Shown piece after piece: positions 1 to 40,281 of a stretch of DNA of 64,000 nt (position 1 is the first letter of the stretch; each line of letters starts with the position of its first letter). The DNA is from an uncultured virus (IMG/VR IMGVR_UViG_3300025732_000034) (Duplodnaviria; Heunggongvirae; Uroviricota; Caudoviricetes): the IMG/VR virus record IMGVR_UViG_3300025732_000034; one strand, 5' to 3'. The notes under the pieces are model-generated. The model worked only from the letters and a program-made list of their open reading frames with translations. It had not been told where the DNA came from and searched no databases. The translations under genes were made by a program, and so were the position numbers.

Positions 1-29
1 AAAAAAAAAAAAAAAAAAAAAAATAAAAA
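1..29. repeat. Poly-A run at window start
   Basis: A23 then TAAAAAT. Positionally equivalent to the A-rich run at 37,408-37,421. Confidence 0.8.
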
Positions 30-150
30 TGGTTCGCGGACCCTACGGCGCTGGACCTTTGGGCCGTCGGCCCTCCCCCGCCCCCTCGACCCAAATCGGC
101 CCTCCAAATCCGCGGCAACCTGGGCGCGGGGCGACCGCGGGCGCAGCGCG

Positions 151-569
151 ACCCAGCGGGCACGATGCACCCGGCGAACCCGAGGCGCAGCAAAACCCAG
201 CGGGTGCCCAGTGCCCGGGTCAATTGCCCCCGCGAATCCGCGACCCGCTGGGTTCACTGGGCCGGTTCATGGATTCGAGGGGGCACGGGCGCAGGGCGAC
301 CCACTGGGCCATGAAAAGCGAGGGAAAGGTTGACCCAGCGGGTTAAAAAGGGCCGGTGTGACAAAGTGCCCTTTCGCGCAGGCGACCCCCTTGATAGAGT
401 ACTTTTCGAAAAGCACTTATTTTTCAGAATCTCGAGAATCTACCCCCTGAGATAAAAGGGCGCATTGTCGCCACTTGATCCGCATGCAACCCAGCGGGGC
501 GGGAAACCTAATAACCCCGCGACCCAGTGGGTTATTATTGAAGGGTTTGACAATTTGAACCCACTGGGT
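151..569. promoter_or_regulatory. Cluster of 8 quasi-palindromes ACCCA(G/C)(C/T)GGGN (putative operators)
   Basis: Copies at 151, 195, 243 (reverse orientation), 299, 333, 489, 522 and 559. Confidence 0.7.
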
Positions 570-576
570 TGATAAT
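547..576 (+). promoter_or_regulatory. Early sigma70-type promoter
   Basis: TTGACA (547-552), 18 nt spacer, GATAAT (571-576), upstream of the first early gene. ACCCACTGGGT lies in the spacer. Confidence 0.75.
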
Positions 577-634
577 GGCGCATCGGCACACAAAACCGAT
601 GCACTGTAACCCGTAACCCCGAAAGGATGTAACC

Positions 635-781
635 ATGAACCGCCACCGTTTAACCTACGTCGATTTACACCCCGAGGCCCTGGGCCGTGAAAAGGCCCCG
701 CACCCTCTCGCCTTGATTGCGGGCGCGATTGTCGCGGCCCTCGCCTTTTATCTCGCAACCGTTTTTCTTTTCTCACTGTAA
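635..781 (+). CDS. Small early membrane protein, 48 aa (MNRHRLTY...VFLFSL)
   Basis: Translated by hand. Follows the start repeat, has a C-terminal hydrophobic helix, and has a homologue at 38,160-38,294. Confidence 0.75.
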   Translation: MNRHRLTYVDLHPEALGREKAPHPLALIAGAIVAALAFYLATVFLFSL

Positions 782-807
782 CCCGTAACCCCCGAAAGGA
801 TGTAACC

Positions 808-1104
808 ATGAAAACCGAAACCCTCGTTTTATCCGCAACCGTTGACCGCCTCGCAACCTTGAAGGCCGAAATTGCCCGATTGAAGGCCGAAGAGGATGCA
901 CTGAAGGATGTATTGATTGAAGCGGGCCTTGAAGTGATTGAAGGCACCCAGCACCGGGCCGCAATCTCGCATTGTGCGGGCCGTGAATTGATCGACTGGA
1001 AAACGATTGCAGCGAAATTCTCGCCCTCTCGGCAATTGATCGCAGCGCATACGTCGCAGGGTGAACCCTATGCAACCGTGCGCCTCTCGGCCCGTAAAGC
1101 GTAA
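808..1104 (+). CDS. Early hypothetical protein with N-terminal coiled coil
   Basis: 98-aa ORF directly after the start repeat. Confidence 0.8.
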   Translation: MKTETLVLSATVDRLATLKAEIARLKAEEDALKDVLIEAGLEVIEGTQHRAAISHCAGRELIDWKTIAAKFSPSRQLIAAHTSQGEPYATVRLSARKA

Positions 1105-1130
1105 CCCGTAACCCTTGAAAGGATGTAACC

Positions 1131-1379
1131 ATGAATGCAACCGAAACCCGCACCCTTTGGGCAATTGCCCGCGATATCCGCGCCCACTGGGTGAAACCTT
1201 ATTTTGGGGCCGTGCCCTATCTTGAGGCCCTTGATTCACTTTCGCATATTGAGGATTCGTACGGATTTGACGATGCCGAGAGCATTGTGCGTTATTTTCT
1301 CGCCAATGCGGGCACGTGGCGGGGCGAGGATGCCCGCCGAATCAAGGCCGAATTAAAAACCATGCTGGGGGATAAATAA
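1131..1379 (+). CDS. Early hypothetical protein
   Basis: 82-aa ORF after the start repeat. Its stop overlaps the next start (TAATG). Confidence 0.8.
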   Translation: MNATETRTLWAIARDIRAHWVKPYFGAVPYLEALDSLSHIEDSYGFDDAESIVRYFLANAGTWRGEDARRIKAELKTMLGDK

Positions 1380-2056
1380 TGCGATATCACTTTATCCGCG
1401 AATCTAGCAACCGTAAAACCGGCCCAATACCCGTTACTTATTCGCAGCGCGAAACGTGCCCGCCTTCATGCCCGCACTATCGGGCCGATTGCTACGCCGA
1501 GGATTTTTACACCCGTATGGCATGGGACAAGGTACCCGTGAGAGGGGGCACCCTCGGCGCATTGTGCGAGGCCGTCGCAGGGTTGCCCGAGGGGCAATTA
1601 TGGCGCATGAACGTCGCGGGGGATTTACCGGGCGAGGGTGAAACGGTTGACCCCGTCGCCCTGGGCGAGATTGTGCGGGCGAATATCGGGCGCAGGGGGT
1701 TCACGTACACCCATAAGAAAAGCCCCGAGGCCGTGCACTGGGCGCAGCATGCGACCCGCTGGGGGTTTACCGTAAACCTTTCGGCCGATGATGCGGGCGA
1801 GGCCGATACCCTGGCCGAAACCGGGTTACCGGTTTGCGCCATTGTGCCCAGTGATACCCCCGAGAAAACCGAAACCCCCGCGGGCCGCACAATCATTGTC
1901 TGCCCCGCACAATCTCGCGAGGATATCGATTGCGCGACGTGCGGCCTATGCGCCCGTGCCGATAGGCGCGTGATTATCGGATTCCGGGCGCACGGCACCC
2001 GTGCCCGCGTTACCGATGCAAAGGCCCGTCGCGTTATTCCAATTTTGAAAGGATGA
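1379..2056 (+). CDS. Cys-rich early protein, GP88/radical-SAM-like (tentative)
   Basis: Motifs CPPSCPHYRADCYA, WRMNVAGD, FTYTH, VNLSAD and a C-terminal CPAQ-x5-CxxCxxC. Confidence 0.6.
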   Translation: MRYHFIRESSNRKTGPIPVTYSQRETCPPSCPHYRADCYAEDFYTRMAWDKVPVRGGTLGALCEAVAGLPEGQLWRMNVAGDLPGEGETVDPVALGEIVRANIGRRGFTYTHKKSPEAVHWAQHATRWGFTVNLSADDAGEADTLAETGLPVCAIVPSDTPEKTETPAGRTIIVCPAQSREDIDCATCGLCARADRRVIIGFRAHGTRARVTDAKARRVIPILKG

Positions 2057-2060
2057 AACC

Positions 2061-2252
2061 ATGCCCCTCGATTTAATGACGTTACCGGCCCATGAGGCCG
2101 AGGCCCTCGCCTATGCCGAGGGATTCGCGGGCACGGCCCGCCTTTTCGCACGGATTGCGGATTTACAAAAGGCCCTCGGCGAGGCCGTCGCCGAGAATGA
2201 GATTCTGCGCGAATCCCTGCGCGACCTTGAAAGGGAAAGGTTGCGCGAATGA
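2061..2252 (+). CDS. Early coiled-coil protein
   Basis: Follows a partial start repeat. The LAYAEGF motif is shared with 39,286-39,597. Confidence 0.75.
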   Translation: MPLDLMTLPAHEAEALAYAEGFAGTARLFARIADLQKALGEAVAENEILRESLRDLERERLRE

Positions 2253-2323
2253 TAACGGCCCTTTTAATTGCGGCCCTCGGGGCCGTTTTATTGCCCTTAA
2301 TTGCCTGGATTCTCGATTTATAA
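2249..2323 (+). CDS. 24-aa hydrophobic peptide MITALLIAALGAVLLPLIAWILDL
   Basis: ATGA overlap with the upstream gene. Conserved homologue at 39,594-39,668. Confidence 0.7.
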   Translation: MITALLIAALGAVLLPLIAWILDL

Positions 2324-2328
2324 ACCCT

Positions 2329-2355
2329 GCCCCCGGTAACCCCGGGGGCCTTTTT
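2329..2355 (+). terminator. Intrinsic terminator
   Basis: GCCCCCGG-TAACC-CCGGGGGC stem followed by CTTTTT. Confidence 0.75.
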
Positions 2356-2376
2356 AACCCTTGAAAGGATGTAACC

Positions 2377-2685
2377 ATGAAACCCAGTAAACCCGCCGAG
2401 GCGGGCCTTTTTGCGGCCCGTATCCGCGAAACCGTCGCCCGCCTCGCCCTCGATGAACCCCGCGCAGCGGATTATCTCGGGGTGCCGGTGTACACCCTGC
2501 GAAAGTGGGCGACGGGCGAGCGGGTGCCCTCGGCCTCGGCCATTCGCTTGCTCGATGTCCTGGGCACCATTGAAGCCCTTGCGCCTGCGCTTCACGCAGC
2601 ATTTTTGCCCGCAGAATCGAGTCATGTCCGAAAATCCAGATCGAAAAGGTCAACCGATTCGGTCATGTCAGAAAATCCACTTTGA
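2377..2685 (+). CDS. XRE-type helix-turn-helix regulator
   Basis: AADYLGVPVYTLRKWATGERVP HTH signature. Homologue at 39,743-40,042. Confidence 0.8.
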   Translation: MKPSKPAEAGLFAARIRETVARLALDEPRAADYLGVPVYTLRKWATGERVPSASAIRLLDVLGTIEALAPALHAAFLPAESSHVRKSRSKRSTDSVMSENPL

Positions 2686-2702
2686 AGGAGTCAACCATCA
2701 TG
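2621..2702 (+). repeat. 41-bp-period tandem duplication (GTCATGTC(C/A)GAAAATCCA...GTCAACC)
   Basis: Units start at 2621 and 2662. Almost identical copy at 39,978 and 40,019. Confidence 0.8.
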
Positions 2703-2951
2703 AACAGAGAAGATATTATCCGCATGGCAGACGAGGCGGGTATTACGCCATGGGAAAAACTTGAATACATCGGTGACAAAAAATTCTCATCAACAGATGA
2801 GGGGCTTGACGGCGATCTTACTTGCCTGATTCAATTTGCCACCCTTGTCGCCGCCGCTGAATGTGAGGCGTGTGCGAAATTGTGTTTGGAAACTGAGCCG
2901 TTTTACGGGGTGATGTTTGCCGAAGCCATCCGAGCAAGGGGACAAGCATGA
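2700..2951 (+). CDS. Hypothetical protein (MNREDIIRMA...AEAIRARG type), copy 1 only
   Basis: GAAGGAG RBS, ATG at 2700. Absent from copy 2. Confidence 0.75.
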   Translation: MNREDIIRMADEAGITPWEKLEYIGDKKFSSTDEGLDGDLTCLIQFATLVAAAECEACAKLCLETEPFYGVMFAEAIRARGQA

Positions 2952-3172
2952 ACGCCAATGACCACTACGAACGCCTCTATGGCGACCTGGGGCTGCACCC
3001 CAAGGACGCGGCCCGCTGGGTCTTCGCCTCGGGCTGGAACGCTGCCCTCGAGGAGTTTATGAAGCGCGTGAAAGAGATGCCCCTGGAGAGGGACACCCGC
3101 GCTGGGTTCCTGGTTTACCTGGGTCAGATGATGCACGTCGACCCGTCCGAGATCGAAGGGAGAATGCAATGA
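2948..3172 (+). CDS. Conserved hypothetical protein (left anchor of the cassette array)
   Basis: 74 aa. Close homologue at 40,057-40,281. Confidence 0.8.
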   Translation: MNANDHYERLYGDLGLHPKDAARWVFASGWNAALEEFMKRVKEMPLERDTRAGFLVYLGQMMHVDPSEIEGRMQ

Positions 3173-3606
3173 CCATAGAAGCAATGAAACAGGCGCTGGA
3201 GGCGTTGGAGTGCATTTTTGCATCGACACATCCGTATCGTGGAGATGAATCAACCTTCACGGATGAGGCATCAGTACTTGGCGACAAAGCCATCACATCC
3301 CTACGCCAAGCCATAGAGCAGGCTGAGAAGCTGGAGCCTGTGGCGTGGTGTGTTACATACAACGGTGAATTAACTGGAAACGTTTTCGAGAACAAGCGTA
3401 TCGCTGATTTATGCAAGCGAAATCTTGAAGCGAAATATGGGTCGGAAGAAGATCGAAAAGTGGTGGCAATCTACGCCGCCCCACAACCACAGCATGAATG
3501 GGTTGGGCTGACGGATGAGGAAGTGGATTACATCGCCGATGAATACTCCACTTTGCAAGGCGCAATCCGCGCCATTGAAGCCAAATTAAGGAGCAAGAAC
3601 ACATGA
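3169..3606 (+). CDS. Modular cassette protein (MKQALEALE / LRQAIEQAEK / WVGLTDEE / AKL..KNT)
   Basis: Carries all four shared repeats, with ATGA overlaps at both ends. Confidence 0.8.
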   Translation: MTIEAMKQALEALECIFASTHPYRGDESTFTDEASVLGDKAITSLRQAIEQAEKLEPVAWCVTYNGELTGNVFENKRIADLCKRNLEAKYGSEEDRKVVAIYAAPQPQHEWVGLTDEEVDYIADEYSTLQGAIRAIEAKLRSKNT

Positions 3607-3713
3607 GCGACTGGACTACTCTTGAGCGAATAGCTTTTGTCCTTTTTGCTTTTGGGCTTGGCTTTATTTTTGGTTTTGCTTTTTGTTTACACGGATTGGG
3701 AGGTGACAAATGA
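3603..3713 (+). CDS. 36-aa membrane peptide (MSDWTTLERIAFVLFAFGLGFIFGFAFCLHGLGGDK)
   Basis: Translated by hand. ATGA overlaps on both sides and an internal GGAGG RBS for the next gene. Confidence 0.7.
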   Translation: MSDWTTLERIAFVLFAFGLGFIFGFAFCLHGLGGDK

Positions 3714-4186
3714 CTGAACAATCCTTAGCACTGCAACTGGCTGATTCGGCTGATGCCTGTCAACTCACTGTACACGATTGCTTTTTAGTTGCCAAAGAAT
3801 TACGCCGCCTGCATGACCTGCTAGGTAAAGCAAATGCGCTGGCGCGTATTCGTGCTAATAAAATTGACGAATTAGAACAACAAATAACTAAGACCGAGGC
3901 GCAACTTGGGGAATCAGTATGGAACTATGGCGAACTTAAAAGGGAGCAATTGGCGAACCAACAAAAAACTTCTGGTTCGCCAGTGGTTTCAGAGCTGCAT
4001 TGCATTTGCGGAGCAGAGTGGGAATGGCACAACCATGATTGGGAACTTGTCACCACCCCACAACCACAGCGTGAATGGGTTGGGCTGACGGAAGATGAAG
4101 TCATCGAATGCACGCCGACTTGGGGAGGTACTGTTGAAGATGTTGCCCGACTCATCGAAGCCAAACTCAAGGAGAAGAACACATGA
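3710..4186 (+). CDS. Modular cassette protein with C-terminal WVGLT...KLKEKNT module
   Basis: 158-aa ORF with shared C-terminal repeats. Confidence 0.8.
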   Translation: MTEQSLALQLADSADACQLTVHDCFLVAKELRRLHDLLGKANALARIRANKIDELEQQITKTEAQLGESVWNYGELKREQLANQQKTSGSPVVSELHCICGAEWEWHNHDWELVTTPQPQREWVGLTEDEVIECTPTWGGTVEDVARLIEAKLKEKNT

Positions 4187-4332
4187 GCAAAGACGAACTG
4201 CTGGCGATCCTGCGCCTGTGTAACGCTGACTCGTCAGCCATCGATGCTGTTGAGTTGGCCTACGAGTTGGGTTTCAAAGCGGGTCAAGCGGAAAAATCCG
4301 ATGACCCTCAGTCCATCGACTCAGGGTCGTAA
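4183..4332 (+). CDS. 49-aa conserved protein (right anchor of the cassette array)
   Basis: MSKDELLAILRLCNADSS... Near-identical ORF at 42,094-42,243. Confidence 0.7.
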   Translation: MSKDELLAILRLCNADSSAIDAVELAYELGFKAGQAEKSDDPQSIDSGS

Positions 4333-6800
4333 CCCTTCACCAATTTGCGCTCTTTGCCCTGGGCAGTGGCATAGCGGTAAATGTAGTCCGCATGCCGCTG
4401 CTTGGCCTTGATCACCTTCTCGCGGTACTCGCGGAACATGGTCGAGATGCTGGGGTTGATCGCCCAGACCACATGGTGCTTGGTCATCTTTTCCTCAATC
4501 TGCATGGCCCAGCCAGCCTTCTCAAGCGTGTACATGGCATCGAGCACCATCTGATCCTTCTGCCACTCGGTTTTGCCCTCGAGCCGCCTTCTGGCTGACC
4601 GCTTGAGGCTTCTCAGGTCCACCATCTGCGTGTCCCCGCTCACTTGGATGATGTAGTCGGTCATCCACTGATCGAACGAGTCGTCAAGCACCCCGGCCAA
4701 CTCACCCAGGGCATAGCGGAACGCGGGGATGATGTAGCCCCGCACGATGTGGACAACTTTGTGGACAATCTCAACATCGACCTGCGGGCTGAACGGGTTC
4801 TCCATCAGGTGCATCAACAGAATCAAGCGGCCCGCGGTGCCCTCGAGCTTACCGAAGGCCGTCATATATTCGCTGGATGCGTTCAAGAGCCGCTCGTCCT
4901 GCTTGGCCCCTTCGTACCATGATTGGAAATCCCGATACGCATGGTATGCGTCTGGGGATAACTTGTACGTCTGGGGCGGCAGGGCGTAGATCAAGCGCAG
5001 CGTGTTCTCCCACGCCTGGGCGCTTGTCATGTACTCGGGCACAGGGTTACCCAAGCGCGTCTTGCTACCGCGCAGGATCGCTGGTATAAATCGCTGGAGT
5101 AGACCATCGCTTGCGAGGGAGGCCAGGTTTTGCTTAAAAACTTGTGGCTGGATGTTGCCGTAGATGCTGACGGCCAAGTTCTCGCAGTGGATCGACCCCG
5201 CGCCCACGCGATCCATCTCGTACCGTTCTGCCTCGTATGACACCACCCACGCTGATCGATCCTCGCCGCTTTGCTTGTCGGTCAGTTTGCGAATCCATGA
5301 GTTCATCTCATCGAGGTGGCACAGCAGCCCCCGTGGCCGCTCGGCAGCAGACCGCACGAGTTTCTGGCTGGTGATGTCACTCACCGTGATCTTGAGCGGC
5401 ACAGGCTGCGGTGGCATCTCGGGCACGGCTGGTGGCTGGCCCCCGAGCAGGGCATCGGGCGAGGCTGAGAACTCGAGGAATGACTTCTTGGCGCTGGCGT
5501 ATGCGGCCTCCTTACCCTCCCAGTCCAGCAGTTCCTTCTGGTATCGTGGCCGGTCCTCGGCCTCGATGTCTTTGAGCGGTGAGAGCATGGGGCGCGATCC
5601 GGGTGACTTCTTGTCCGCTGGGTCACCGAGGGTCATCAACCAGAGCACCGGCGGCACTCTGAACCCTGGCATCAACTCGAGCCGGATGCGGGCATCAACC
5701 ACCCCGCAGACAGCGCTCAATCCAGCGAACAAAGGGACCAAAGGGTCGCACCCAACGCTGTCGGATATCTCCAGCGCCCGTGTTTGCAAAACCGAGGGCC
5801 AAAGCCCCATGTCCATCTCTGGTGGCGGTGGCCGCAGCCCTTGCAGCACATCGACCGGGGCCATCGGTGGGGCATCCACCTTGCTGAACAACTCGTGCGC
5901 GTCAGGCGTGGGGCGCTGCCACCCGTGCTGCTTGGCAATGTGAAAGAGTGTCCCCAACTTGACAGCGGTGGCCTTGTCCGGCTTAAAGCTGACCCACTGC
6001 GTCACGATGCCGCGCTCACCAGGGTACTTGGCTGCGGACTGCGCGGACCACTCGTTCCACAGTTGCAGGGCTGCGTCAAGCTGCTCGGTCTGGGTGCCTG
6101 CCCAGTGCAGGGCCATGCCGACGTTGATCCACTCCTCGCGGGCGCAGTCGGCAGGGATGGCCTCGAGCGCCTGCCTGATCTCCTCCCAGGATGCGTCAAC
6201 CTGCTCACCGGTGGCGATGGTGCGCTCTTTGTCTTGCGCCAGCAGTTCGTGCCAGATGTCCAGCAGTTGCTGGGGGATCACGGGCAGGCGCATCCAGTGG
6301 CCCAGGCCAGCCCAGTGATAGGGTTGCTTGGTGTCAGGATGGATGCTTGGGGGCAGCACATCCTGCACCGTCAACCCGTTGGCCGTGGCGCAGCGCAACT
6401 CGTAAGCTGTCACCCCACCGACCAGAATCTTTTTACTCGGCAGCGCGAGGCCAAAGGGCATCGTGTACAGTAGCTTGCCGTGCCCAGGGCGACCACTGTT
6501 GATGATCACAGCATCGGGTGCGTCGTAGAGCGCTTGCAGATCGATCCCCTGCGCCAGCGTAGCGTCCCAGTTGTCGATGTCAAAGGCCATCGTGCCGCTG
6601 TACGCATGGGCCAGTCCAATGCCGTAGCCCTGGGGTAGTTGCGTCTGGTCCTTGAGGCAGCGCTCACGCTTGTTCCAGCCCACCGCAGCAGCACCTGTCG
6701 GACCCTTCGTGCCTGGGGGGATTGGCACAAGGCTCCAGCCATGTCGGATGTACGCATCAACGGATGCGGGATGTTGTTGCACTGATTGGACTGCTGTCAT
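4308..6800 (-). CDS. Bifunctional primase-polymerase with PriCT-2 and DUF3987-like helicase domain
   Basis: N-terminal YIRHGWSLVPI..GTKGP, FDID, GHGKLLY, VLPPSIHP. PriCT-2 WINVGMALH...WNEWS...KY. C-terminal G.PADKKSP, DEM, DGLLQRF. Start set at 6800 by comparison with copy 2. Confidence 0.85.
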   Translation of the reverse strand: MTAVQSVQQHPASVDAYIRHGWSLVPIPPGTKGPTGAAAVGWNKRERCLKDQTQLPQGYGIGLAHAYSGTMAFDIDNWDATLAQGIDLQALYDAPDAVIINSGRPGHGKLLYTMPFGLALPSKKILVGGVTAYELRCATANGLTVQDVLPPSIHPDTKQPYHWAGLGHWMRLPVIPQQLLDIWHELLAQDKERTIATGEQVDASWEEIRQALEAIPADCAREEWINVGMALHWAGTQTEQLDAALQLWNEWSAQSAAKYPGERGIVTQWVSFKPDKATAVKLGTLFHIAKQHGWQRPTPDAHELFSKVDAPPMAPVDVLQGLRPPPPEMDMGLWPSVLQTRALEISDSVGCDPLVPLFAGLSAVCGVVDARIRLELMPGFRVPPVLWLMTLGDPADKKSPGSRPMLSPLKDIEAEDRPRYQKELLDWEGKEAAYASAKKSFLEFSASPDALLGGQPPAVPEMPPQPVPLKITVSDITSQKLVRSAAERPRGLLCHLDEMNSWIRKLTDKQSGEDRSAWVVSYEAERYEMDRVGAGSIHCENLAVSIYGNIQPQVFKQNLASLASDGLLQRFIPAILRGSKTRLGNPVPEYMTSAQAWENTLRLIYALPPQTYKLSPDAYHAYRDFQSWYEGAKQDERLLNASSEYMTAFGKLEGTAGRLILLMHLMENPFSPQVDVEIVHKVVHIVRGYIIPAFRYALGELAGVLDDSFDQWMTDYIIQVSGDTQMVDLRSLKRSARRRLEGKTEWQKDQMVLDAMYTLEKAGWAMQIEEKMTKHHVVWAINPSISTMFREYREKVIKAKQRHADYIYRYATAQGKERKLVKGYDPESMD

Positions 6801-6901
6801 ACACTCAACCCGTTGGTAATTGCAGTTGCCGACAGTCTCCTCATGGGTATTCCTCTTGCGCCTCGGCTGACCCCCGAGGCGTTTCTTTTTCCGCTTGTCA
6901 T
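6797..6901 (-). CDS. 34-aa leader ORF upstream of primase
   Basis: MTSGKRNASGVSRG... conserved at 44,708-44,812. Its stop overlaps the primase ATG. Confidence 0.4.
   Translation of the reverse strand: MTSGKRNASGVSRGARGIPMRRLSATAITNGLSV
6859..6890 (+). terminator. Terminator-like hairpin antisense to primase
   Basis: CGCCTCGG-CTGACCC-CCGAGGCG followed by TTTCTTTTT. Conserved at ~44,770-44,801. Confidence 0.6.
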
Positions 6902-6931
6902 TTATTGCTCCAAAAATATTTTCGCTTGACC

Positions 6932-6970
6932 TGTTGCACATCGTACAGCAACCGTGTTACGATTGCAACA
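6932..6970 (+). promoter_or_regulatory. Putative promoter of the replication operon, bracketed by an inverted repeat
   Basis: TTGCAC (6934), 18 nt spacer, TACGAT (6958). TGTTGCA (6932) and TGCAACA (6964) form an inverted pair. Confidence 0.5.
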
Positions 6971-6990
6971 TCAAACGGAGATTTTTCTAA

Positions 6991-7194
6991 ATGCCCGCAC
7001 TTAAATCATTCGACACGCACATGACTCTACGAGTCACAAACCGTGTCCGTACCGCGTTCAATCGCAAGGCAGAGCGATACGGGAAACCGTCCGATGTCTT
7101 GCGTGAACTCATCGAGGCTTTTCTTGATGATCGACTTGTAATCCAACCCAACCCCCGTAAGGAGTCACTGTATGTCCCTCGAATCCAAGATTGA
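6991..7194 (+). CDS. Ribbon-helix-helix DNA-binding protein
   Basis: THMTLRV beta strand, then AF..KA..YG..SDVLRELIEAF helices. Confidence 0.7.
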   Translation: MPALKSFDTHMTLRVTNRVRTAFNRKAERYGKPSDVLRELIEAFLDDRLVIQPNPRKESLYVPRIQD

Positions 7195-7573
7195 AGCCCT
7201 CACCGCCGCCGTCATTGCCTTGACCGCGAAACTGGAATCTACGAATGTAGCGCCAGCCGCGCCTGTGGTAAACCCTACCCCCGCACCCGTGGCTGCACCG
7301 GCACCCGCTCCAGCCCCTGCACCGGTGGCTGCTGCCATGCCCGCGCCTCCCACGTTTCAACCCGCCCCCGCCGCGCCTGCCGCCACTGGTGCTCCGTTCA
7401 GCGATCCGAAGGGGCTGATCGACTACGTGATGAGCGCATACAAGGCGCTTGGCCCGCAGAAGGGTGCCGAGATTCAGAAGGTCTTGACCGGCTTGGGCTA
7501 CGGCAATATCAACGATGTCAAGCCTGAGCACTACGGCGCTTTGCATGCTGGCGTTGAAGCGCTGAAGGGTTAA
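7172..7573 (+). CDS. Pro/Ala-linker protein of the replication module
   Basis: AAGGAG RBS. MSLE..IE.LT.AV N-terminus, PA-rich linker, G..I.DV.PE.Y C-terminus. Confidence 0.75.
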   Translation: MSLESKIEALTAAVIALTAKLESTNVAPAAPVVNPTPAPVAAPAPAPAPAPVAAAMPAPPTFQPAPAAPAATGAPFSDPKGLIDYVMSAYKALGPQKGAEIQKVLTGLGYGNINDVKPEHYGALHAGVEALKG

Positions 7574-7575
7574 CC

Positions 7576-8874
7576 ATGAGCACCCACGCTAACCTGTCCC
7601 CGAGCAAGCGCCACCGCTGGGCGCTGTGTCCGGGCAGCGTTCGTGAGGAAGCCAAGTACCCAGAGGAGCGCACCAGCGAAGCCGCGATTGACGGCACCCA
7701 TAGTCACACACTGCTTGAGCACTGTCTGAGCGAGGGCGTTGAGCCTGAGACAATGATCGGTCAAGTCCTGAGTGATGACGATGGGGCTTTCAAGGTGGAC
7801 GCTGACCGCGCTGCTAGGGTCAAGGTCGCCACGGACTATGTGAAACACCGCATCGCGGAGCAGTTCGGCATGTGCGAGGTCATCGCGGAAACGCGAGTCA
7901 ACCCTCAGCACCTGCTTGGCCGTGACGACATGAGCGGCACAGTGGACATCCAGATTCGCGGCACTGAAGTGCTCGAACTGGTGGACTACAAAGACGGCAT
8001 GGGTGTGGTGGAGGCCGAGGGCAACTACCAACTCGAACTGTACGCGATGGGCTGCTTGGCTGAGTTGAAGCTGCCCGTCAACGGCCAGTACCCGTGGAAG
8101 CGGGTCCGCATGACCATCATCCAGCCCAAGCTGGCGCTGAAGGGCATGAAGCCAATCACATCGCATGAGGTGCCGGTTCAGGCAATTCTTGATATGATTG
8201 GCAAGATGGTCATCGAAGGCGCTGCCTGCGATGCACCGGACGCACCACTGGTGCCGGGTGACAGTCAATGTAAATTTTGCCGCGCTAAAGGCTCCTGCGC
8301 CGCGCTGGCAAGTAACGTAATGAAGGAGGTAGGAATCATGTTCCAGCCAGCAGTAATGAACCCGATGGATGTCGCGCAGCAAAGCGCTGACAAAGACCCC
8401 ACGACAATGGACGATGCCCAGATCAGACAGATCATGGAGGCGGCTCCGCTCATGCGCCAGCTACTCGAGGGCGTGGAGAAGGAAGCCCTGCGCCGTCTGG
8501 AGGCCGGTCAATCAATCCCTGGACTCAAGTTGGTCAACGGTCGCGGCTCACGCGCCTGGGCGCTGCCCGAGGAGCAGATGGCCGAGAAGCTGGTCAAGAT
8601 GGGCATCCCCAAGACCGCAGTCTACGAAACCAAACTCGTCACCCCCGCCAAGGCTGAGAAGCTGACCTGGGAGAAGCGTGACGGAACCAAGATGCAACTG
8701 TCCGACCGCCAACTCAAGACGATGGAAAACGAGTACGTCGTCAAGATGGCTGGCAAGCTGACTGTTGTCCCTGAATCCGATGGCCGTCCCGCTGTCGTAC
8801 TGAATGCTGCGCCGATGTTCGGTGCAGTTGAAGCAGCACCCGCTGCCGAATCCCTGCCCTCGTGGCTAACCTAA
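7576..8874 (+). CDS. DUF2800-like PD-(D/E)xK (Cas4-like) nuclease
   Basis: HANLSPS..HRW..CPGS, GT..H, GTVD, VDYKDG, QL.LYA.G, IIQP, CKFC...C. Confidence 0.85.
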   Translation: MSTHANLSPSKRHRWALCPGSVREEAKYPEERTSEAAIDGTHSHTLLEHCLSEGVEPETMIGQVLSDDDGAFKVDADRAARVKVATDYVKHRIAEQFGMCEVIAETRVNPQHLLGRDDMSGTVDIQIRGTEVLELVDYKDGMGVVEAEGNYQLELYAMGCLAELKLPVNGQYPWKRVRMTIIQPKLALKGMKPITSHEVPVQAILDMIGKMVIEGAACDAPDAPLVPGDSQCKFCRAKGSCAALASNVMKEVGIMFQPAVMNPMDVAQQSADKDPTTMDDAQIRQIMEAAPLMRQLLEGVEKEALRRLEAGQSIPGLKLVNGRGSRAWALPEEQMAEKLVKMGIPKTAVYETKLVTPAKAEKLTWEKRDGTKMQLSDRQLKTMENEYVVKMAGKLTVVPESDGRPAVVLNAAPMFGAVEAAPAAESLPSWLT

Positions 8875-8889
8875 ACTGGAGTAACTGTA

Positions 8890-9546
8890 ATGTCCGATAT
8901 CATTTTTCTGTCAAACGTCCGTCTGTCTTTCCCGCACCTTGCGGAGCCACAGCGTCAGATCAACGAGGCCACTGGTAAGGAGCGCGTCAGCTACAACTGC
9001 GAGTTCATCATGCCCCAGGATCATCCTGGCTTCACGCAGTTCATGCAGAAGTATGGTGCGCTGGCGCTTGAAAAGTGGAAAGAACACGCCCAGACCGTCA
9101 TGGGCATGATCCAAGGCGACCGCAAGACTCGCTGCTACGGTCGTGGTGAGGAGAAGGTCAACAAGAAAACCTTCCAACCTTATGACGGCTACGCTGGTCA
9201 TGTGTTTATCACCGCTGGCCGCGACTCGCAGCCCCAGGTGATTCAGGCTGATGGTCAACCCATCGACCCGACCAACACGATGGCTTACCAGCAACTGACA
9301 CGCAAGATGTACGGCGGTTGCCGCGTCAACGCTGCTGTCAAGCCCTGGTTGCAAGACAACAAGCATGGCCGTGGTATCCGTTGCGACCTGATTGCCATCC
9401 AGTTCGCTGCTGACGACAAAGCGTTTGGCGAGGGTGCAGTCGATGCGTCCAGCCTGTTCGCGCCTGCCGCCGCACCCGCTGGTATGTTTGCCCCCGCTGC
9501 CGCCCCAGCGATGCCCCTGCCACCCTTTATGACTGGAGCACAGTGA
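8890..9546 (+). CDS. DUF2815-like single-stranded DNA-binding protein
   Basis: NVRLSFP.L, Y.GC.VNA, G..C.L.AIQF..D..FG. Confidence 0.8.
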   Translation: MSDIIFLSNVRLSFPHLAEPQRQINEATGKERVSYNCEFIMPQDHPGFTQFMQKYGALALEKWKEHAQTVMGMIQGDRKTRCYGRGEEKVNKKTFQPYDGYAGHVFITAGRDSQPQVIQADGQPIDPTNTMAYQQLTRKMYGGCRVNAAVKPWLQDNKHGRGIRCDLIAIQFAADDKAFGEGAVDASSLFAPAAAPAGMFAPAAAPAMPLPPFMTGAQ

Positions 9547-9728
9547 TGCAACTCGACCTTCATGTGAGCGAGATCAACGCTGCCATCGCCCTATTCAGTG
9601 GCTTGGCTGAGAAGATCAGGGAGCAGGCGATTGCACAGTCGCAGCCGCCCCAGCCCCCTATGCCCGATCCCAACATTCCAGACAATGCTGAGATTATTCC
9701 AGTAGAAAACGCTGGCGGCACTGACTAA
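9543..9728 (+). CDS. Small hypothetical protein, copy 1 only
   Basis: 61-aa ORF overlapping the SSB stop. No counterpart in copy 2. Confidence 0.55.
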   Translation: MMQLDLHVSEINAAIALFSGLAEKIREQAIAQSQPPQPPMPDPNIPDNAEIIPVENAGGTD

Positions 9729-9736
9729 GTGATAAA

Positions 9737-9873
9737 GGGACCGGTGCCGGGCAAACGAAGTGAAACCCCGCCAAGACGCAAGTCGAATGGGGTTTGCAGA
9801 AAGTGGGCGTCGAGATGCTTGGTGAAAGCGCCCCCTCGGTACTGTACAGCCAGTCTCCGGTCCCCCCTTTTTT
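9737..9873 (+). ncRNA. Candidate structured RNA or leader upstream of DNA polymerase
   Basis: Outer stem GGGACCGG/CCGGTCCC, inner stems AAACCCC/GGGGTTT, GAC-GCAA-GTC (GNRA loop) and GGGCG/CGCCC, then a U-tract. Confidence 0.45.
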
Positions 9874-9884
9874 GAGTAACTGTA

Positions 9885-26707: not shown

Positions 26708-26755
26708 TTTGTCGATTCTTTAGAATCCCTGGTCAACTGGGCCAGTACAGGTTTT

Positions 26756-37397: not shown

Positions 37398-37564
37398 TCT
37401 AGGATTCAAAAAATAAAAAAATTCCGTGCGGACCCTACGGCGCTGGACCCTTGGGCCGTCGGCCCTCCCCCACCCCCTCGACCCAAATCAACCCTCCAAA
37501 ATCACGGGCACCGGGAGCGCGGCTCCCGTGGCTCCGGCTCCCGCGTCTCCGTGGCTCCGCGCTC

Positions 37565-37951
37565 ACCCAATGAGCTGGAGCAATTAACCCGATGGGTATT
37601 GATCCAATGGGTTACAGACACACAAAATCTGGGATTCTCGAGCGCTCACCCAGTGAGCGGGAATTCCCTTGAGGCTCTCACCCAATGGGCCACAGAAACA
37701 TAGGAATTCCCTTTCCCATTGGGTCAATTCGAGGGAGTGTGACAATTGTTACTTTCGCGCAGGCGACCCCCCAGATTGATACTTTTTCCATTGGGTCTTT
37801 TTTTTCAGAATCCTTGAATCCTTACCCTTGAGATAAAAGGGCAATTTGTCACAGTTTGCTAACTCATTACCCAATGGGCCACGGATACTCAATACCCATT
37901 GGGTTTACTGGGTTATTTCATCGAATGCTTGACACGGCTCACCCAATGGGC
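37565..37951. promoter_or_regulatory. Cluster of about 10 (A)CCCA(A/T/G)TG(G/A)G quasi-palindromes, copy 2
   Basis: For example at ~37,565, 37,587, 37,603, 37,648, 37,680, 37,714, 37,787, 37,869, 37,894 and 37,941. Confidence 0.7.
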
Positions 37952-37957
37952 CACAAT
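37929..37957 (+). promoter_or_regulatory. Early promoter, copy 2
   Basis: TTGACA, 17 nt spacer containing ACCCAATGGGC, then CACAAT. Confidence 0.7.
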
Positions 37958-38017
37958 GTATCCGTGGCTCAAGTGAGCCGCGCTCTCTGTAACCCGTAAC
38001 CCGTGAGGAGTAAGACT

Positions 38018-38158
38018 ATGACCAAATCCGAATTTGCAGCATTGTGTGAAAAGTACACAATCCCTCCATCATTGGCTCTCGAGAATCCCGCAATTGTGGA
38101 GGCTCTCCGTGAGCGAGATGATGCGGAGGTAGAGCGTGTATTGCGTGAGGAGTATTGA
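38018..38158 (+). CDS. 46-aa early protein
   Basis: Translated by hand (MTKSEFAALCEKY...). GAGGAG RBS after the TAACCCG repeat. Confidence 0.7.
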   Translation: MTKSEFAALCEKYTIPPSLALENPAIVEALRERDDAEVERVLREEY

Positions 38159-38159
38159 G

Positions 38160-38294
38160 ATGAACAATCATCGAGACTATCCATACATGCGTGAGCGTGA
38201 GGAGCGTGAGCCGCATTGGCTCCTCATCATTGGAGGAGCCGCGCTCACGCTCGCGGCTTTGTGGATTGTGTGTGTCTTTCTTTTTTCTCTGTAA
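38160..38294 (+). CDS. 44-aa early membrane protein
   Basis: MNNHR...PHW.LI.G.A...VFLFSL, homologous to 635-781. Confidence 0.7.
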   Translation: MNNHRDYPYMREREEREPHWLLIIGGAALTLAALWIVCVFLFSL

Positions 38295-38311
38295 CTGTGA
38301 GGAGTAACCCA

Positions 38312-38848
38312 ATGAGTAACTTATTTGAACAATTCGAGGGAGCCGATTTGGAGCGGCTCATAGCTTGCCTGAATGAGGTCAAACTGGCCGGAATGAGTGT
38401 AGACAAACACACTCAAGCCGGAGTGAATCAAGGCTCTGGGAATGTCTGGGTTTGGAATGAAGACTGGCCGGGTTGTGTGTATTGCTCTATCGGTTTCGAT
38501 GTTTCGTGGTGCTACTCATGCCCTGATTGTGGTGAGGAGCATGATTTTGAGACTTATGACGAAATGGCCGATTATGCGGAGCGTTATCCCGGAGCGTGTA
38601 AATCATGTAAGCCGCGTTATCTGGCCGGATGGAATTTTCCCGGATATCTCCCAGACGCGGAGCCGGTGGAATTTGAGGAGCCGGATGATGCGCTCGAATA
38701 TGTCCGGGATTTAATGCGCGAAGATGCTCAAGGGAATGGATGGAGCCGCGAAGATGAGGAGACTATCGACACAATCGAGAGCGACAAAGCCGGAGAATTT
38801 GGGGCCACAGTGTATGGCCGTCATTACTTTGTAACTGTGGAGGCTTGA
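38312..38848 (+). CDS. Acidic early protein with CxxC motifs
   Basis: GAGGAG RBS, ATG at 38,312. CVYC, CPDC, CKSC and a D/E-rich C-terminal half. Confidence 0.75.
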   Translation: MSNLFEQFEGADLERLIACLNEVKLAGMSVDKHTQAGVNQGSGNVWVWNEDWPGCVYCSIGFDVSWCYSCPDCGEEHDFETYDEMADYAERYPGACKSCKPRYLAGWNFPGYLPDAEPVEFEEPDDALEYVRDLMREDAQGNGWSREDEETIDTIESDKAGEFGATVYGRHYFVTVEA

Positions 38849-38851
38849 ATC

Positions 38852-38977
38852 ATGACAGCATTGGAAATTTACCAATTGTTAGATGGAGCAGGTATTAAAT
38901 TTGAGGTAATTGAGATATTCGAGGGCTCTCGATTTATCCGAATTGAGGTAATTGAAGAAATAGATGAGGAGGCTTAA
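38852..38977 (+). CDS. 41-aa acidic early protein
   Basis: Translated by hand (MTALEIYQLLD...EEIDEEA). GGAGG RBS. Confidence 0.65.
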   Translation: MTALEIYQLLDGAGIKFEVIEIFEGSRFIRIEVIEEIDEEA

Positions 38978-38980
38978 ATC

Positions 38981-39274
38981 ATGGAAACAGTACAAATTGA
39001 GGTTTATTCATTCGATGAATTGAGCGCGGAGACGCTCGAGCGCATGCGCTCCGATGTATCCGAATTTGTGGAGAGTAACAAAGCCGCGCTCCGTGAATCT
39101 GGGTTATCTGATGAGCAAATTGGCCACGATTTTTGGCTCACCCGTAATGGCCACGGAGCGGGATTCTGGGATCGTGGAATTGGCCCCATTGGAGACACAC
39201 TCACTCGAGCCGCGAAGCACTCCGGGAGCGCGGATTTGTACATCGGAGATGATGGAAACATTCACCAATTTTGA
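38981..39274 (+). CDS. Early protein with GHDFWLTRNGHGAGFWDR motif
   Basis: 97-aa ORF with a GGAGG RBS. Confidence 0.75.
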   Translation: METVQIEVYSFDELSAETLERMRSDVSEFVESNKAALRESGLSDEQIGHDFWLTRNGHGAGFWDRGIGPIGDTLTRAAKHSGSADLYIGDDGNIHQF

Positions 39275-39285
39275 GGAGAAATACT

Positions 39286-39597
39286 ATGTTTGATTCACTG
39301 ACAATTGCAGAGCGTGAGCGTTTGGCATACGCGGAGGGATTCACGGAGACGGCTCGAGTATTGGGCCAAACCGATGATGCACAAACAGAGCGAGACGCGT
39401 TACTCGATGAGGTAGAGCGGCTCCGTGATGAATTGCGGGATTTGCAGCGAGAAACCCAGGATTATGCGGAGTATCGCGCATTTTTTGAGGAGTGTTTCGA
39501 GCATCTGGCCGGACATTATCCGGCTCCGTCTGTAACCTCAGACTATGACAAATCCGTGATTTTCACGGCTATCGATAACGCAGAGGGAGCCGCATGA
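39286..39597 (+). CDS. Early coiled-coil protein (LAYAEGF family) with C-terminal extension
   Basis: GAGGAG RBS. N-terminal half is homologous to 2061-2252. Confidence 0.75.
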   Translation: MFDSLTIAERERLAYAEGFTETARVLGQTDDAQTERDALLDEVERLRDELRDLQRETQDYAEYRAFFEECFEHLAGHYPAPSVTSDYDKSVIFTAIDNAEGAA

Positions 39598-39668
39598 TAA
39601 CGGCTCTCTTAATTGCACTCGCGGGAGCAATTTTGCTCCCGTTAATAGCCCATTTTCTTGATTTGTAG
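39594..39668 (+). CDS. 24-aa hydrophobic peptide MITALLIALAGAILLPLIAHFLDL
   Basis: Homologue of 2249-2323. Confidence 0.7.
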   Translation: MITALLIALAGAILLPLIAHFLDL

Positions 39669-39689
39669 AGCGAGACACGCTCACCCAGT

Positions 39690-39718
39690 ACCCGGAGACA
39701 CGCTCTCCGGGTTTTTTT
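39690..39718 (+). terminator. Intrinsic terminator
   Basis: CCCGGAGA-CACGC-TCTCCGGG followed by T7. Confidence 0.8.
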
Positions 39719-39742
39719 GATCCCGTATTTTGGAGGCTTAAT

Positions 39743-40042
39743 ATGTCACAGTACACACAATCCGCGCTCTCTCATCGGCTCATCGAATTGCGCTCCCGTC
39801 TCAATTTTTCACAGATTCAAATGGCCGATTATTTGGGAGTGTCTGTATTCACGCTCCGCAAATGGGAGAGCGGAGAGCGTAACGCGGGAGCCGCGCTCAT
39901 CCGGCTACTCGATGTTTTGAATTTTTTGGAGGTCTTTGCTCCCGCGCTTCACGCTGGGTTTTTGCCCACAGAATCGAGTCATGTCCGAAAATCCAGATTG
40001 AAAAGGTCAACCGATTCGGTCATGTCAGAAAATCCACTTTGA
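39743..40042 (+). CDS. XRE-type HTH regulator
   Basis: SQ.QMADYLGVSVFTLRKWESGER. Confidence 0.8.
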   Translation: MSQYTQSALSHRLIELRSRLNFSQIQMADYLGVSVFTLRKWESGERNAGAALIRLLDVLNFLEVFAPALHAGFLPTESSHVRKSRLKRSTDSVMSENPL

Positions 40043-40056
40043 AGGAGTCAACCACC

Positions 40057-40281
40057 ATGAACGCCAATGACCACTACGAACGCCTTTATGGCGACCTGGG
40101 CCTGTCACCCAAGGACGCGGCCCGCTGGGTCTTTGCATCAGGCTGGAACAGCGCCCTCGAGGAGTTTATGAAGCGCCTGAACACCATGCCACTGGGTGAC
40201 GACACCCGCGCATCGTTTGCCGTGTATGTCGGGCAGATGATGCACGTTGACCCGTCCGAGATCGAGGGGAGAATGCAATGA
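40057..40281 (+). CDS. Conserved hypothetical protein (array left anchor)
   Basis: Homologue of 2948-3172. Confidence 0.8.
   Translation: MNANDHYERLYGDLGLSPKDAARWVFASGWNSALEEFMKRLNTMPLGDDTRASFAVYVGQMMHVDPSEIEGRMQ

Follow-up and report, generated by a model that had tools for sequence, protein, structure and literature searches.

A swappable first early operon free of GGAG/CTCC and other short DNA words in an uncultured freshwater podophage: possible selection against words read by host defences

First-step-transfer DNA of phage T5 carries no EcoRI sites, and prokaryotic viruses reportedly avoid restriction sites throughout their genomes (PMC6286503). The immunity regions of lambdoid phages (imm434, imm21 and imm-lambda) are mosaic alternative cassettes found at one locus. 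Two reports describe motif-free leading regions: that of Autographiviridae Murciavirus, considered against a Type I restriction system (PMC12455610), and the first-step-transfer region of T5 and BF23 (PMC10644984). The general principle of motif-free first-entering DNA, which an earlier sequence-only reading of the DNA analysed here had taken as established, is in print (PMC12455610, PMC10644984). The present locus resembles the Murciavirus and T5 leading regions in being a variable region beside a putative genome end that carries the first early genes and lacks words common in the remaining genome, and close relatives differ mainly there. It differs from them in the number of words involved, several of three or four bases being banned together where the known cases concern a single defined site; its ribosome binding sites are recoded too, and its sister cassette over-uses this set of words and excludes others. 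Like the lambdoid immunity regions, the locus has alternatives that cannot be aligned, set between conserved junctions, with their own helix-turn-helix protein and their own palindromic sites overlapping a promoter. Unlike in lambdoid phages, no integrase or lysogeny module was recognised in the window, that is, the whole 64,000-nt stretch of DNA analysed, and the difference in oligonucleotide vocabulary between the cassettes runs through their genes and is not confined to the operators. Genome-wide restriction-site avoidance likewise involves short words under-represented on both strands; however, the effect here is confined to 2.5 kb, concerns non-palindromic tetramers and is not stronger for palindromes.

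The window consists of two related podophage genomes, about 37.9 kb each, in tandem. The phage is an uncultured freshwater phage known from metagenomes alone, and the stretch was present whole or in part in 20 of the 24 listed runs, from 16 studies; among these runs, all assembled as contigs, terS is joined to the cassette in X1, X5 and X14. In copy 1, a stretch of 2585 nt (103..2686, both strands) is free of GGAG/CTCC. A manual scan in the sequence-only reading had reported this absence for 106-2686, and counting bore it out (0 GGAG, 0 CTCC), together with the scarcity there of GAGC/GCTC, put at about three (GAGC n=2, at 1280 and 2518; GCTC n=1, at 2550), the abundance of GCCC/GGGC (80) and GGCG/CGCC (51), and the return of GGAG at 2687, the gap being bounded by 102 and 2687. 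No longer GGAG/CTCC gap exists in the window, where the second longest measures 1722 nt, and the window-wide density predicts 14.2 occurrences in it.

The GGAG-free stretch coincides with a swappable 2.5-kb early cassette of copy 1 (about 130-2578), which begins with a control region, continues with the first sigma-70-type operon and ends inside a helix-turn-helix gene, of which it holds the 5' part. Two conserved junctions flank it (18-129 and 2579-2705; the copy 2 equivalents are 37408-37522 and 39936-40062). The left block (18..129, + strand), common to both copies, is 85% identical to 37408-37522 and holds the last CTCC sites before the gap, at 73 and 102; its homologue in the related GenBank genome DSL-LC05 has three CTCC. 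At the right junction, 2579-2705 and 39936-40062 share 94% identity. From 2579 the copies are homologous again, and the banned words return at 2687, 2703 and 2758. Between the junctions, the cassette could not be aligned with its copy 2 counterpart (37523-39935), whereas the backbones are 78-96% identical. Furthermore, a genome bearing copy 2's cassette, G001, is 98-99% identical to either copy (98% to copy 1 across 4200-12000); two cassettes thus occur on one backbone at one locus, and the replication environment cannot explain the contrast in words. A 120-bp end overlap in G001 (37456-37575) was also seen, which may be an assembly overlap. The early region is hypervariable among close relatives. 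TerS relatives in IMG/VR numbered 210, and the set of early regions comprised 42 distinct ones from the 55 of 80 TerS loci with 2.6 kb or more upstream, plus the two cassettes of the window.

The cassette of copy 1 includes the first promoter-to-terminator operon, next to a conserved segment upstream of terS. Its cassette-specific non-coding control region (130..634, + strand) contains five ACCC-N3-GGGT palindromes (195, 243, 333, 522 and 559), GGGCG-type words, and a predicted sigma-70-like promoter (547-576; TTGACA-18-GATAAT, 11 of 12 matches) with a palindrome in the spacer. The sequence ACCCNNNGGGT is matched eight times in the window (0.78 expected), and every match falls within 195-569 or 37387-37904. 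A short conserved island within the control region (371..469, + strand) is 78% identical to 37752-37850. The first early operon (635..2323) consists of six small genes on the + strand, at 635-781 (a 48-aa membrane peptide), 808-1104, 1131-1379 (phrog_13953 by PHROG match), 1379-2056 (DUF7227; Pfam, E=1.8e-73), 2061-2252 and 2249-2323, and has homologues of its genes in DSL-LC05. An intrinsic-terminator-like hairpin closes it (2329..2349, + strand; eight G-C pairs followed by a T-run). The helix-turn-helix gene (2377..2685, + strand) has a cassette-specific 5' part and a 3' part, from 2579, common to copy 2; it gave a weak HTH_31 match, and its copy 2 homologue matches HTH_3 at 4.4e-7. DUF7227 and the helix-turn-helix protein were recognised in the cassette, the remainder being small proteins without assigned function, and searches of Pfam, PADLOC, PHROGs, Protein Data Bank sequences and the ESM Atlas gave no informative match to an anti-defence family. 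No known RNA family was found in 1-4400, and no tRNA in the window. A 372-aa antisense reading frame (1507-2625) with an Arg/Gly/Pro-rich translation was judged spurious.

We compared the counts with null models that carry local composition. A second-order Markov model of the region itself predicted 8.9 GGAG/CTCC, and a synonymous-codon shuffle of the seven cassette genes predicted 12.3, against none observed; the lowest count in 2000 shuffles was 3 and none of the 2000 reached zero, indicating that neither amino acids nor codon usage accounts for the depletion. By strand, the codon shuffle predicted 7.5 GGAG and 4.8 CTCC, and both were absent (P=0.002 for CTCC). The depletion is also local, since the words occur at 5.5 per kb window-wide. 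Composition does not account for the absence of GGAG/CTCC from a region when the remaining genome has it, and this is also true of AACA/TGTT, AACT/AGTT and, in copy 2, CGCC/GGCG. GAGC/GCTC occurred three times against 9.8-10 under local nulls and 20.6 under core codon usage; this scarcity is mostly part of a general shortage of AGC/GCT.

The GGAG/CTCC depletion is real, but it is neither the sole nor the top one: the word ranked 18th in an unbiased scan of absent words, and 34 of 136 tetramers had |z|>3 in the cassette, as many over-used as under-used. The proposal that GGAG/GAGC is the motif was not supported, because AACA/TGTT, AACT/AGTT and AGC/GCT are depleted equally or more. Specifically, AACA/TGTT is lacking from 1-2702 (23 expected), AACT/AGTT from 1-2757 (20 expected), AGCC/GGCT from 1-1720 and AGC/GCT from 1758-2466, AGC/GCT being 3.6-fold poor in the cassette as a whole. 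Ten of the twelve most improbable word-free stretches of the window lie within or span the two cassettes. Words and their reverse complements have z-scores that correlate more closely in the cassettes (0.52 and 0.50) than in three core controls (0.19-0.30), and the banned words are avoided in coding and non-coding DNA alike, on both strands; this strand-symmetric purge points to an effect at the DNA level. Weak and strong bases showed just a weak, broad rise at lags 11-15 when helical periodicity was considered.

The ribosome binding sites take part in the purge. The sequence-only reading had named GAAAGGATG as the Shine-Dalgarno sequence here, in place of the AAGGAG used elsewhere. In fact, GAAAGGATG lies upstream of five of the seven cassette genes and GGAG within 22 nt of none, which upholds the former part; however, GGAG is used in just 5 of 22 core genes, so that the latter part fails. 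Within 22 nt upstream, GGAG was found for three of the next four early genes and for all eight genes of the sister cassette. A repeated unit, ..AACCC..GAAAGGATGTAACCATG, precedes four cassette genes (starts 635, 808, 1131 and 2377), with the full GTAACCCGTAACCC upstream of starts 635, 808 and 1131, and GAAAGGATGAAACCATG at gene 2061.

In the alternative early cassette of copy 2 (37523..39935, + strand), each of the eight genes has a ribosome binding site of the GGAG type, and a GGCTCC array lies at 37521-37558. GGAG/CTCC (n=63) and GAGC/GCTC are in 5-fold excess there. Its banned word is CGCC/GGCG, which is missing over 2300 nt (37762..40062) where the window density predicts 28 occurrences, and no other word gap in the window is as improbable; the cassette contains one occurrence against 24-31 expected (23.8 under a second-order Markov model), and the codon shuffle gave 12.7 expected against 0. 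The reciprocity between the two dialects is limited to the top words. A global reciprocity was rejected, the residual correlation of -0.17 being unremarkable among all pairs (minimum -0.61), and so was cytosine deamination as the source of copy 2's dialect, because the expected product CCT was not raised.

Relatives indicate that the word contrast persists. In DSL-LC05, whose cassette is about 75% (~70-80%) identical in nucleotides and whose backbone is 79% identical, GGAG/CTCC is missing from the cassette genes (10.1 expected) and AGCC/GGCT occurs in them four times (20.0 expected). Seven sequence-related cassettes, chosen after the fact by their depletion, contain GGAG/CTCC at 0.4-0.8 per kb, where the median of 26 downstream regions is 4.8, and the DUF7227 orthologue has none in GGAG-poor cassettes and two to four in five others. 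Copy 2's cassette and four diverged relatives have 13-26 per kb. Pooling 41 relatives gave observed/expected ratios of 0.83 for early and 0.84 for downstream regions; avoidance across the group was thus rejected, and GGAG avoidance is a lineage trait, not a family trait. The hexamer GGCTCC/GGAGCC occurs at 2.7-5.5 per kb in all five copy 2-lineage members, with an array in the control region, and is absent from all seven members of the copy 1/DSL lineage, which bans all three of its overlapping tetramers (GGAG, GAGC and AGCC). Copy 2, on the other hand, has few GCAC and excludes CGCC/GGCG, two words that are plentiful in the copy 1/DSL lineage. The purge is accordingly local, complete, strand-symmetric and evolutionarily persistent.

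We tentatively favour selection that keeps short DNA words out of the first early operon, which would extend the leading-region rule for restriction motifs to many words at once. We infer both that a defence system is the agent and that the cassette DNA enters first. Words read by DNA-targeting systems would be under purifying selection, the first operon having to be without them; codons, codon junctions and ribosome binding sites would be chosen around the banned words. The leading, first-injected region would be kept motif-free and the remaining genome exempt, while avoidance would bring with it a narrower vocabulary, repeated 7-10-mers and an excess of other words, and the different banned set of the sister cassette (CGCC/GGCG and others) might fit a different defence repertoire. 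The sequence-only reading had likewise suggested evasion of a host defence; a purge that is real, strand-symmetric, local, present in ribosome binding sites and kept in a relative of about 75% identity agrees with it, but GGAG/GAGC is not singled out as the motif. Several observations count against avoidance. The skew is broad and points to no one motif in particular, restriction systems typically recognise sites longer than four-base asymmetric words, and GGCC (40), CGCG (27) and GCGC (26) are plentiful in the cassette. Six-base palindromes number 26 against 55 expected there and 9-15 against about 40 in three core windows, so that palindrome avoidance of the Type II style, no stronger in the cassette than in the core, was rejected. 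CTCC at 73 and 102, at the extreme left, would enter first if the left end leads; the sister cassette, rich in GGAG/CTCC, sits on the 98%-identical backbone of G001; and no anti-defence family was recognised in the cassette. In addition, CGAG is preferred before GAG even among non-G choices, suggesting that word preference may account for some of the GGAG loss.

An unlikely alternative is positive selection for cassette-specific cis words, candidate binding words of the cassette's own DNA-binding proteins such as operator half-sites and array words like GGCTCC, with the absent words as collateral loss. Both cassettes are far richer in repeated 8-mers (404 and 380, with 153-171 in four other regions) and 10-mers (123 and 114 against 10-40), and ATTGTGC occurs seven times over both strands and, judged from its flanks, in three reading frames. 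Words of the non-coding arrays recur inside genes, and GCACCC, AACC and CAATGG, which rank at the top in many cassettes, are fragments of the ACCC-N3-GGGT palindromes. The GGCTCC array and its dispersed copies are conserved in a relative with 62% amino-acid identity (11 against 3.5 expected in L224, reached by none of 200 shuffles; 9 against 3.0 in L221, reached by 1 of 200), and the helix-turn-helix N-terminus and the palindrome centres (AGC, ACT or AGT in copy 1; AAT, ATT or GAT in copy 2) both swap with the cassette. However, enrichment does not predict exact zeros for words expected 9-24 times under nulls that carry local trinucleotides, no regular spacing of the favoured words was seen, and the helix-turn-helix protein is the sole cassette protein with a recognisable DNA-binding domain. 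A further, quite unlikely reading is that the DNA vocabularies of the two cassette lineages, each excluding the other, may serve competing phages as a self/non-self code; a cassette-encoded word-reading protein (a repressor, coating protein or nuclease guide) would then target rival phages but leave its own DNA alone, or do the opposite.

Inherited foreign composition, in which the cassettes would be imported mosaic modules with other oligonucleotide signatures and the gaps passive, appears quite improbable. The cassette does deviate from the rest of the genome in composition and codon usage (GAT 81% against 29% in the core, ATT 63% against 26%, GCT in 0 of 92 alanine codons), has lost the period-3 signal, and shows a weak/strong-base lag-1 autocorrelation of +0.24 against -0.06; moreover, the early regions of 26 relatives are shifted from downstream DNA in the same direction for many words. 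A low-GC tailspike module (26651-29168) also has a 2.5-kb gap, for CGAG/CTCG, but a local dinucleotide shuffle, run on the G001 equivalent, expects just 7.45, so that this gap is mostly compositional. By contrast, nulls with the cassette's own composition still expect 9-24 of its banned words, and the contrast with the backbone is kept in DSL-LC05 despite ~20-25% divergence of both, where drift toward the backbone would be expected. Both cassettes share one backbone and locus, and among the retrieved relatives of cassette genes, which all belong to this phage family, there was no donor lineage with the same word signature. Selection at the level of translation or RNA, with weak AAGGA-type ribosome binding sites and removal of internal GGAG, or with mRNA that avoids RNase sites, seems highly improbable. 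Each cassette has one uniform type of ribosome binding site (GGAG 0/7 in copy 1 against 8/8 in copy 2), sense-strand GCT (5 against 40 expected) and TCA (7 against 42) are rare with TGA, the complement of TCA, normal, and the copy 2 helix-turn-helix protein has a weak MqsA antitoxin likeness (E=3e-4, below the family cut-off). Nevertheless, the loss of CTCC and the strand symmetry of the biases, which hold in non-coding DNA too, argue against it, and RBS-like words are enriched, not avoided, in each cassette's own genes (AAAGG 12 against 3.1 in copy 1; GGAG 37 against 23 in copy 2). RNA secondary structure as the cause was rejected, because codon-shuffle folding z-scores of 0.5 to -3.5 were ordinary, resembling those of two core genes and two of the next early genes (-1.6 to -2.3).

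Hunting for single-motif gaps in mosaic phage genomes needs local nulls, as the tailspike gap looked equally improbable and yet is mostly compositional. If the words proved instead to be binding sites, regulatory or self-marking words would here be dispersed through coding sequence, an unusual arrangement. Selection against defence-recognised words predicts that methylated or targeted motifs of the host contain GGAG, AACW or AGC for the cassette of copy 1, and CGCC for that of copy 2. If this reading is true, the leading-region rule on restriction sensitivity would widen from single motifs to the recoding of a whole operon, including its ribosome binding sites, and, if host defences set the banned words, the cassettes would be a natural readout of defence specificities in an abundant uncultured freshwater phage-host system.

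Each of the two related podophage genomes in the window (copy 1 and copy 2; ~37.9 kb each, head to tail) carries its own early cassette, at ~130-2578 and 37523-39935, respectively. GGAG and CTCC, described as absent from the start of copy 1 in the sequence-only reading, indeed occurred zero times in 103-2686, and this 2585-nt gap was the longest for these words in the window (runner-up, 1722 nt), the density in the rest of the window being 5.5 per kb. GAGC/GCTC were found three times, as had been estimated (GAGC at 1280 and 2518, GCTC at 2550), and the words said to be abundant were so (GCCC/GGGC 80, GGCG/CGCC 51 in the stretch). When synonymous codons were swapped among the seven cassette genes, preserving the proteins and cassette codon usage, 2000 shuffles contained 12.3 GGAG plus CTCC on average (minimum 3) against none observed; by strand, the counts were 0 vs 7.5 for GGAG and 0 vs 4.8 for CTCC (P=0.002). 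A second-order Markov model of the region itself predicted 8.9, and codons drawn from core-gene usage 13.8. Thus, the depletion survived amino-acid and codon control and was not genome-wide, the two objections that the sequence-only reading had itself raised. Depletion of GAGC/GCTC was weaker (3 vs 9.8-10.0 under local nulls and 20.6 under core codon usage), largely because the trinucleotide AGC/GCT was 3.6-fold short in the cassette; the GCT codon was used for 0 of 92 cassette alanines. Note that the 1722-nt gap occupies the homologous place in both copies (15223-16945 and 52693-54415), inside a 716-aa gene (15055-17205) whose positional counterpart in the relative DSL-LC05 is annotated as a putative DNA transfer protein; its significance was borderline under a Poisson null.

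GGAG and GAGC did not stand out as the special motifs that had been proposed, since other words were missing too and the GGAG/CTCC gap ranked only 18th in an unbiased scan. AACA/TGTT was absent from 1-2702 (expected ~23 from window density, 9.7 from a Markov model) and AACT/AGTT from 1-2757 (~20 and 8.9), and AGCC/GGCT was the most depleted tetramer of the copy 1 cassette (2 vs 18.7 by codon shuffle). The copy 2 cassette is the mirror case, being GGAG-rich and purged of CGCC/GGCG. It held 63 GGAG/CTCC and 75 GAGC/GCTC, where the rest of the window predicts 12 and 19, and the enrichment exceeded the codon shuffle in both orientations. CGCC/GGCG occurred once in 2.4 kb (expected 23.8 by Markov model, 28 from window density and 31 from the rest of the window) and 0 times within the genes (vs 12.7), which was the most improbable word gap of the whole window. 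On direct reading, synonymous codons differed between the cassettes at homologous positions with the same residues (GGG GCC vs GGA GCA; GCC C vs GCT C). Tetramers with an absolute z-score above 3 (codon shuffle) numbered 34 of 136 in the copy 1 cassette and 23 of 136 in the copy 2 cassette, vs 5 of 136 in a core control. In the word-gap scan, which covered all 3-5-mers against a Poisson null at window-wide density with composition uncorrected, 10 of the 12 most improbable word-free stretches lay in or spanned the two cassettes.

The tailspike/tail-fibre module (26200-31500), a low-GC island (0.38-0.47), is free of CGAG/CTCG over 2517 nt (26651-29168) and has long gaps for CCTCG, CTCGA, GACCC and CATGC. 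Under the global null, its CGAG/CTCG gap was as improbable as those of the cassettes. In the equivalent locus (L232) of G001, a related phage record, a local dinucleotide shuffle predicted 7.45 CGAG and 3 were found, all at the edges; given this low local expectation the gap is mostly compositional, and the module demonstrates that word-gap claims need local nulls.

Among 48 windows, the first 2.6 kb ranked lowest in tetramer entropy (7.39 vs ~7.7); it also had 2.5-fold commoner repeated 8-mers, clustered weak and strong bases (lag-1 autocorrelation +0.24 vs -0.06) and no period-3 coding signal. The z-scores of words and their reverse complements correlated at 0.52 and 0.50 in the cassettes vs 0.19-0.30 in three core sets, and the same words appeared in non-coding arrays and in all three reading frames, indicating a bias on the DNA itself. 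As for ribosome binding sites, GAAAGGATG did precede five of the seven copy 1 cassette genes, and GGAG was found within 22 nt upstream of none; however, GGAG is hardly the rule elsewhere, preceding just 5 of 22 core genes. AAGGA-type sites also precede capsid and tailspike genes, sites following a conserved TGTAACCCGTAACC element in relatives are mostly AAGGA or AAAGA, and all eight copy 2 cassette genes have GGAG-type sites. The TGTAACCCGTAACC element lies upstream of early-gene ribosome binding sites (603-637, 775-810, 1100-1133 and 37990-38020; loci L090-L169) and was present in at least 129 IMG/VR stretches. It holds the preceding gene's stop codon and two direct GTAACCC units, which resemble the half-site of the control-region palindromes.

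The GGAG/CTCC gap coincides with a swappable cassette, flanked on the left by a conserved block (18-129, 85% identity to 37408-37522) and on the right by a conserved junction (2579-2705, 94% identity to 39936-40062), between which the copies could not be aligned except for a 99-bp island (371-469). It comprises a non-coding control region that holds five of the window's 8 ACCC-N3-GGGT palindromes (0.78 expected; all 8 fall within the two control regions), a predicted sigma-70-like promoter with a palindrome in its spacer (547-576), six small genes including one for a DUF7227 protein (Pfam E=1.8e-73), a terminator-like hairpin (2329-2349) and the 5' part of a helix-turn-helix gene. G001, the closest record to the window, has the cassette type of copy 2, and matches copy 1 at 98% identity over 4200-12000 and copy 2 at 99%, then 94%. 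The backbones are therefore interchangeable, and the two cassettes behave as alleles of a single locus within a single recombining population of phages. Replication-machinery mutation bias does not account for such alleles of opposite word content on one backbone. Further right, 40300-40750 was hypervariable in Logan contigs (more than 15 alternative joints and many loose ends), with a summed depth 8-14x that of its flanks (839 and 1456 vs ~100), and looks like a mosaic junction or a short linker common to many co-occurring phage variants. Between the small early genes of 3169-4193 and 40480-41432, short conserved stretches of 41-158 bp match two different places in the other copy (e.g., 3470-3522 matches 40480-40532 and also 41287-41329), and may mark boundaries at which genes are shuffled.

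The gene content is phage-like. Rightward genes encode a RecB-type exonuclease, a gp2.5-like single-strand-binding protein, a family B DNA polymerase and an SNF2 helicase, and leftward genes a primase-helicase, P22-like structural proteins, portal and terminase; most of 4164-25891 aligned to 42075-64000 at 78-96% identity. The primase-helicase gene (877 aa; 4308-6941, minus strand) faces the rightward early operon, and their transcription may converge on 4186-4308. The closest named relative is DSL-LC05 (GenBank OR003940), a metagenome-assembled freshwater phage with 79% identity over replication genes. The phage family is abundant; IMG/VR held 210 TerS relatives, and the stretch was present, whole or in part, in 20 of the 24 runs listed, from 16 studies. 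Three of four runs examined (X1, X5 and X14) had contigs spanning from terS into the cassette. At its very start (within 1-30) the window has a run of 23 A, and a contig ended at most 300 bp upstream of terS in 13 of the 80 TerS loci analysed (best 80 of 210), so this junction is a contig-break hot spot, for which strain variation, the homopolymer or a real end may be the cause. The 'direct terminal repeat' of G001 in IMG/VR is an exact 120-bp overlap (37456-37575) located on the conserved left block and GGCTCC array; assembling a circular or concatemeric template could leave an indistinguishable overlap, and it is uninformative on ends.

Among relatives, the homologous cassette of DSL-LC05 (~70-80% nucleotide identity) had 0 GGAG/CTCC in its genes vs 10.1 expected and 4 AGCC/GGCT vs 20.0, with normal GAGC/GCTC (16 vs 17.1); GGAG resumed just beyond the cassette. 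GGAG/CTCC depletion reached P<0.01 under each region's own Markov model in 6 of 42 dereplicated early regions (a seventh had P=0.017) and in 0 of 26 downstream regions, and all seven align to the copy 1 cassette over at least 1 kb. Across the family, early regions showed no special avoidance of GGAG/CTCC (observed/expected 0.83 vs 0.84 downstream, 41 relatives pooled). The DUF7227 gene, which the cassettes share, lacked GGAG/CTCC where the cassette is GGAG-poor and had 2-4 of them in five other cassettes. Four relatives of the copy 2 cassette, at 62-76% amino-acid identity in its 178-aa protein, had 13-19 GGAG/CTCC per kb and retained the GGCTCC array in the control region; the CGCC ban was not found in these four. 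These patterns indicate that both the ban on GGAG and its excess are long-standing traits of their lineages, and that the bans on AACA and AACT (copy 1) and on CGCC (copy 2) are recent. The full-length 178-aa protein (38312-38848; loci L221-L231), which is cysteine-rich and has an acidic C-terminal half, was seen in GGAG-rich cassettes only (5 loci), and seven other loci with ordinary GGAG counts encode only its N-terminal ~100 residues; this correlation with GGAG excess follows lineage only.

Words that should occur 9-24 times, judging by local trinucleotide composition, had counts of exactly zero, and this points to selection that targets specific words. The main rival, that putative cassette-specific binding words are positively selected, agrees with the conserved GGCTCC arrays and the half-site words inside genes; it does not predict zero counts, and we consider it unlikely. 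Passive inheritance of a donor's composition is decidedly improbable, fitting poorly with a contrast that persists after ~20-25% divergence of cassette and backbone alike. Explanations at the RNA level have very little in their favour, because the bias is strand-symmetric and the ribosome-binding-site-like word of either cassette is over-represented within its own genes. GGAGCC, the hexamer that typifies the copy 2 lineage, breaks down into three overlapping tetramers, and these (GGAG, GAGC and AGCC) are the three most banned or near-banned in copy 1; since the banned words thus tile the other lineage's hexamer, they could form a self/non-self code distinguishing competing cassettes, an idea that we regard as rather improbable.

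Several observations count against word avoidance: the skew is broad, the banned words are short and asymmetric, extra palindrome avoidance was not found in the cassette, the conserved left block contains CTCC (73 and 102), a GGAG-rich allele exists, and no anti-defence gene was recognised among the cassette genes. The literature searched offered single-motif avoidance only, cassette-wide multi-word bans not having been a dedicated search target. The closest known cases are motif-free leading regions: for Murciavirus facing a Type I restriction system, the first-injected region has to be free of restriction motifs and the genome remainder does not (PMC12455610), and PMC10644984 discusses the same principle for T5/BF23; in our phages, the order of entry is one that we infer. 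Under word avoidance, selection would remove particular short words from the cassette, and the shrunken vocabulary and recurrent 7-10-mers would be expected by-products. The earlier idea of a first-injected segment recoded against a motif-recognising host defence may thus be kept, tentatively and in broadened form, as many-word, cassette-specific bans like those of motif-free leading regions.
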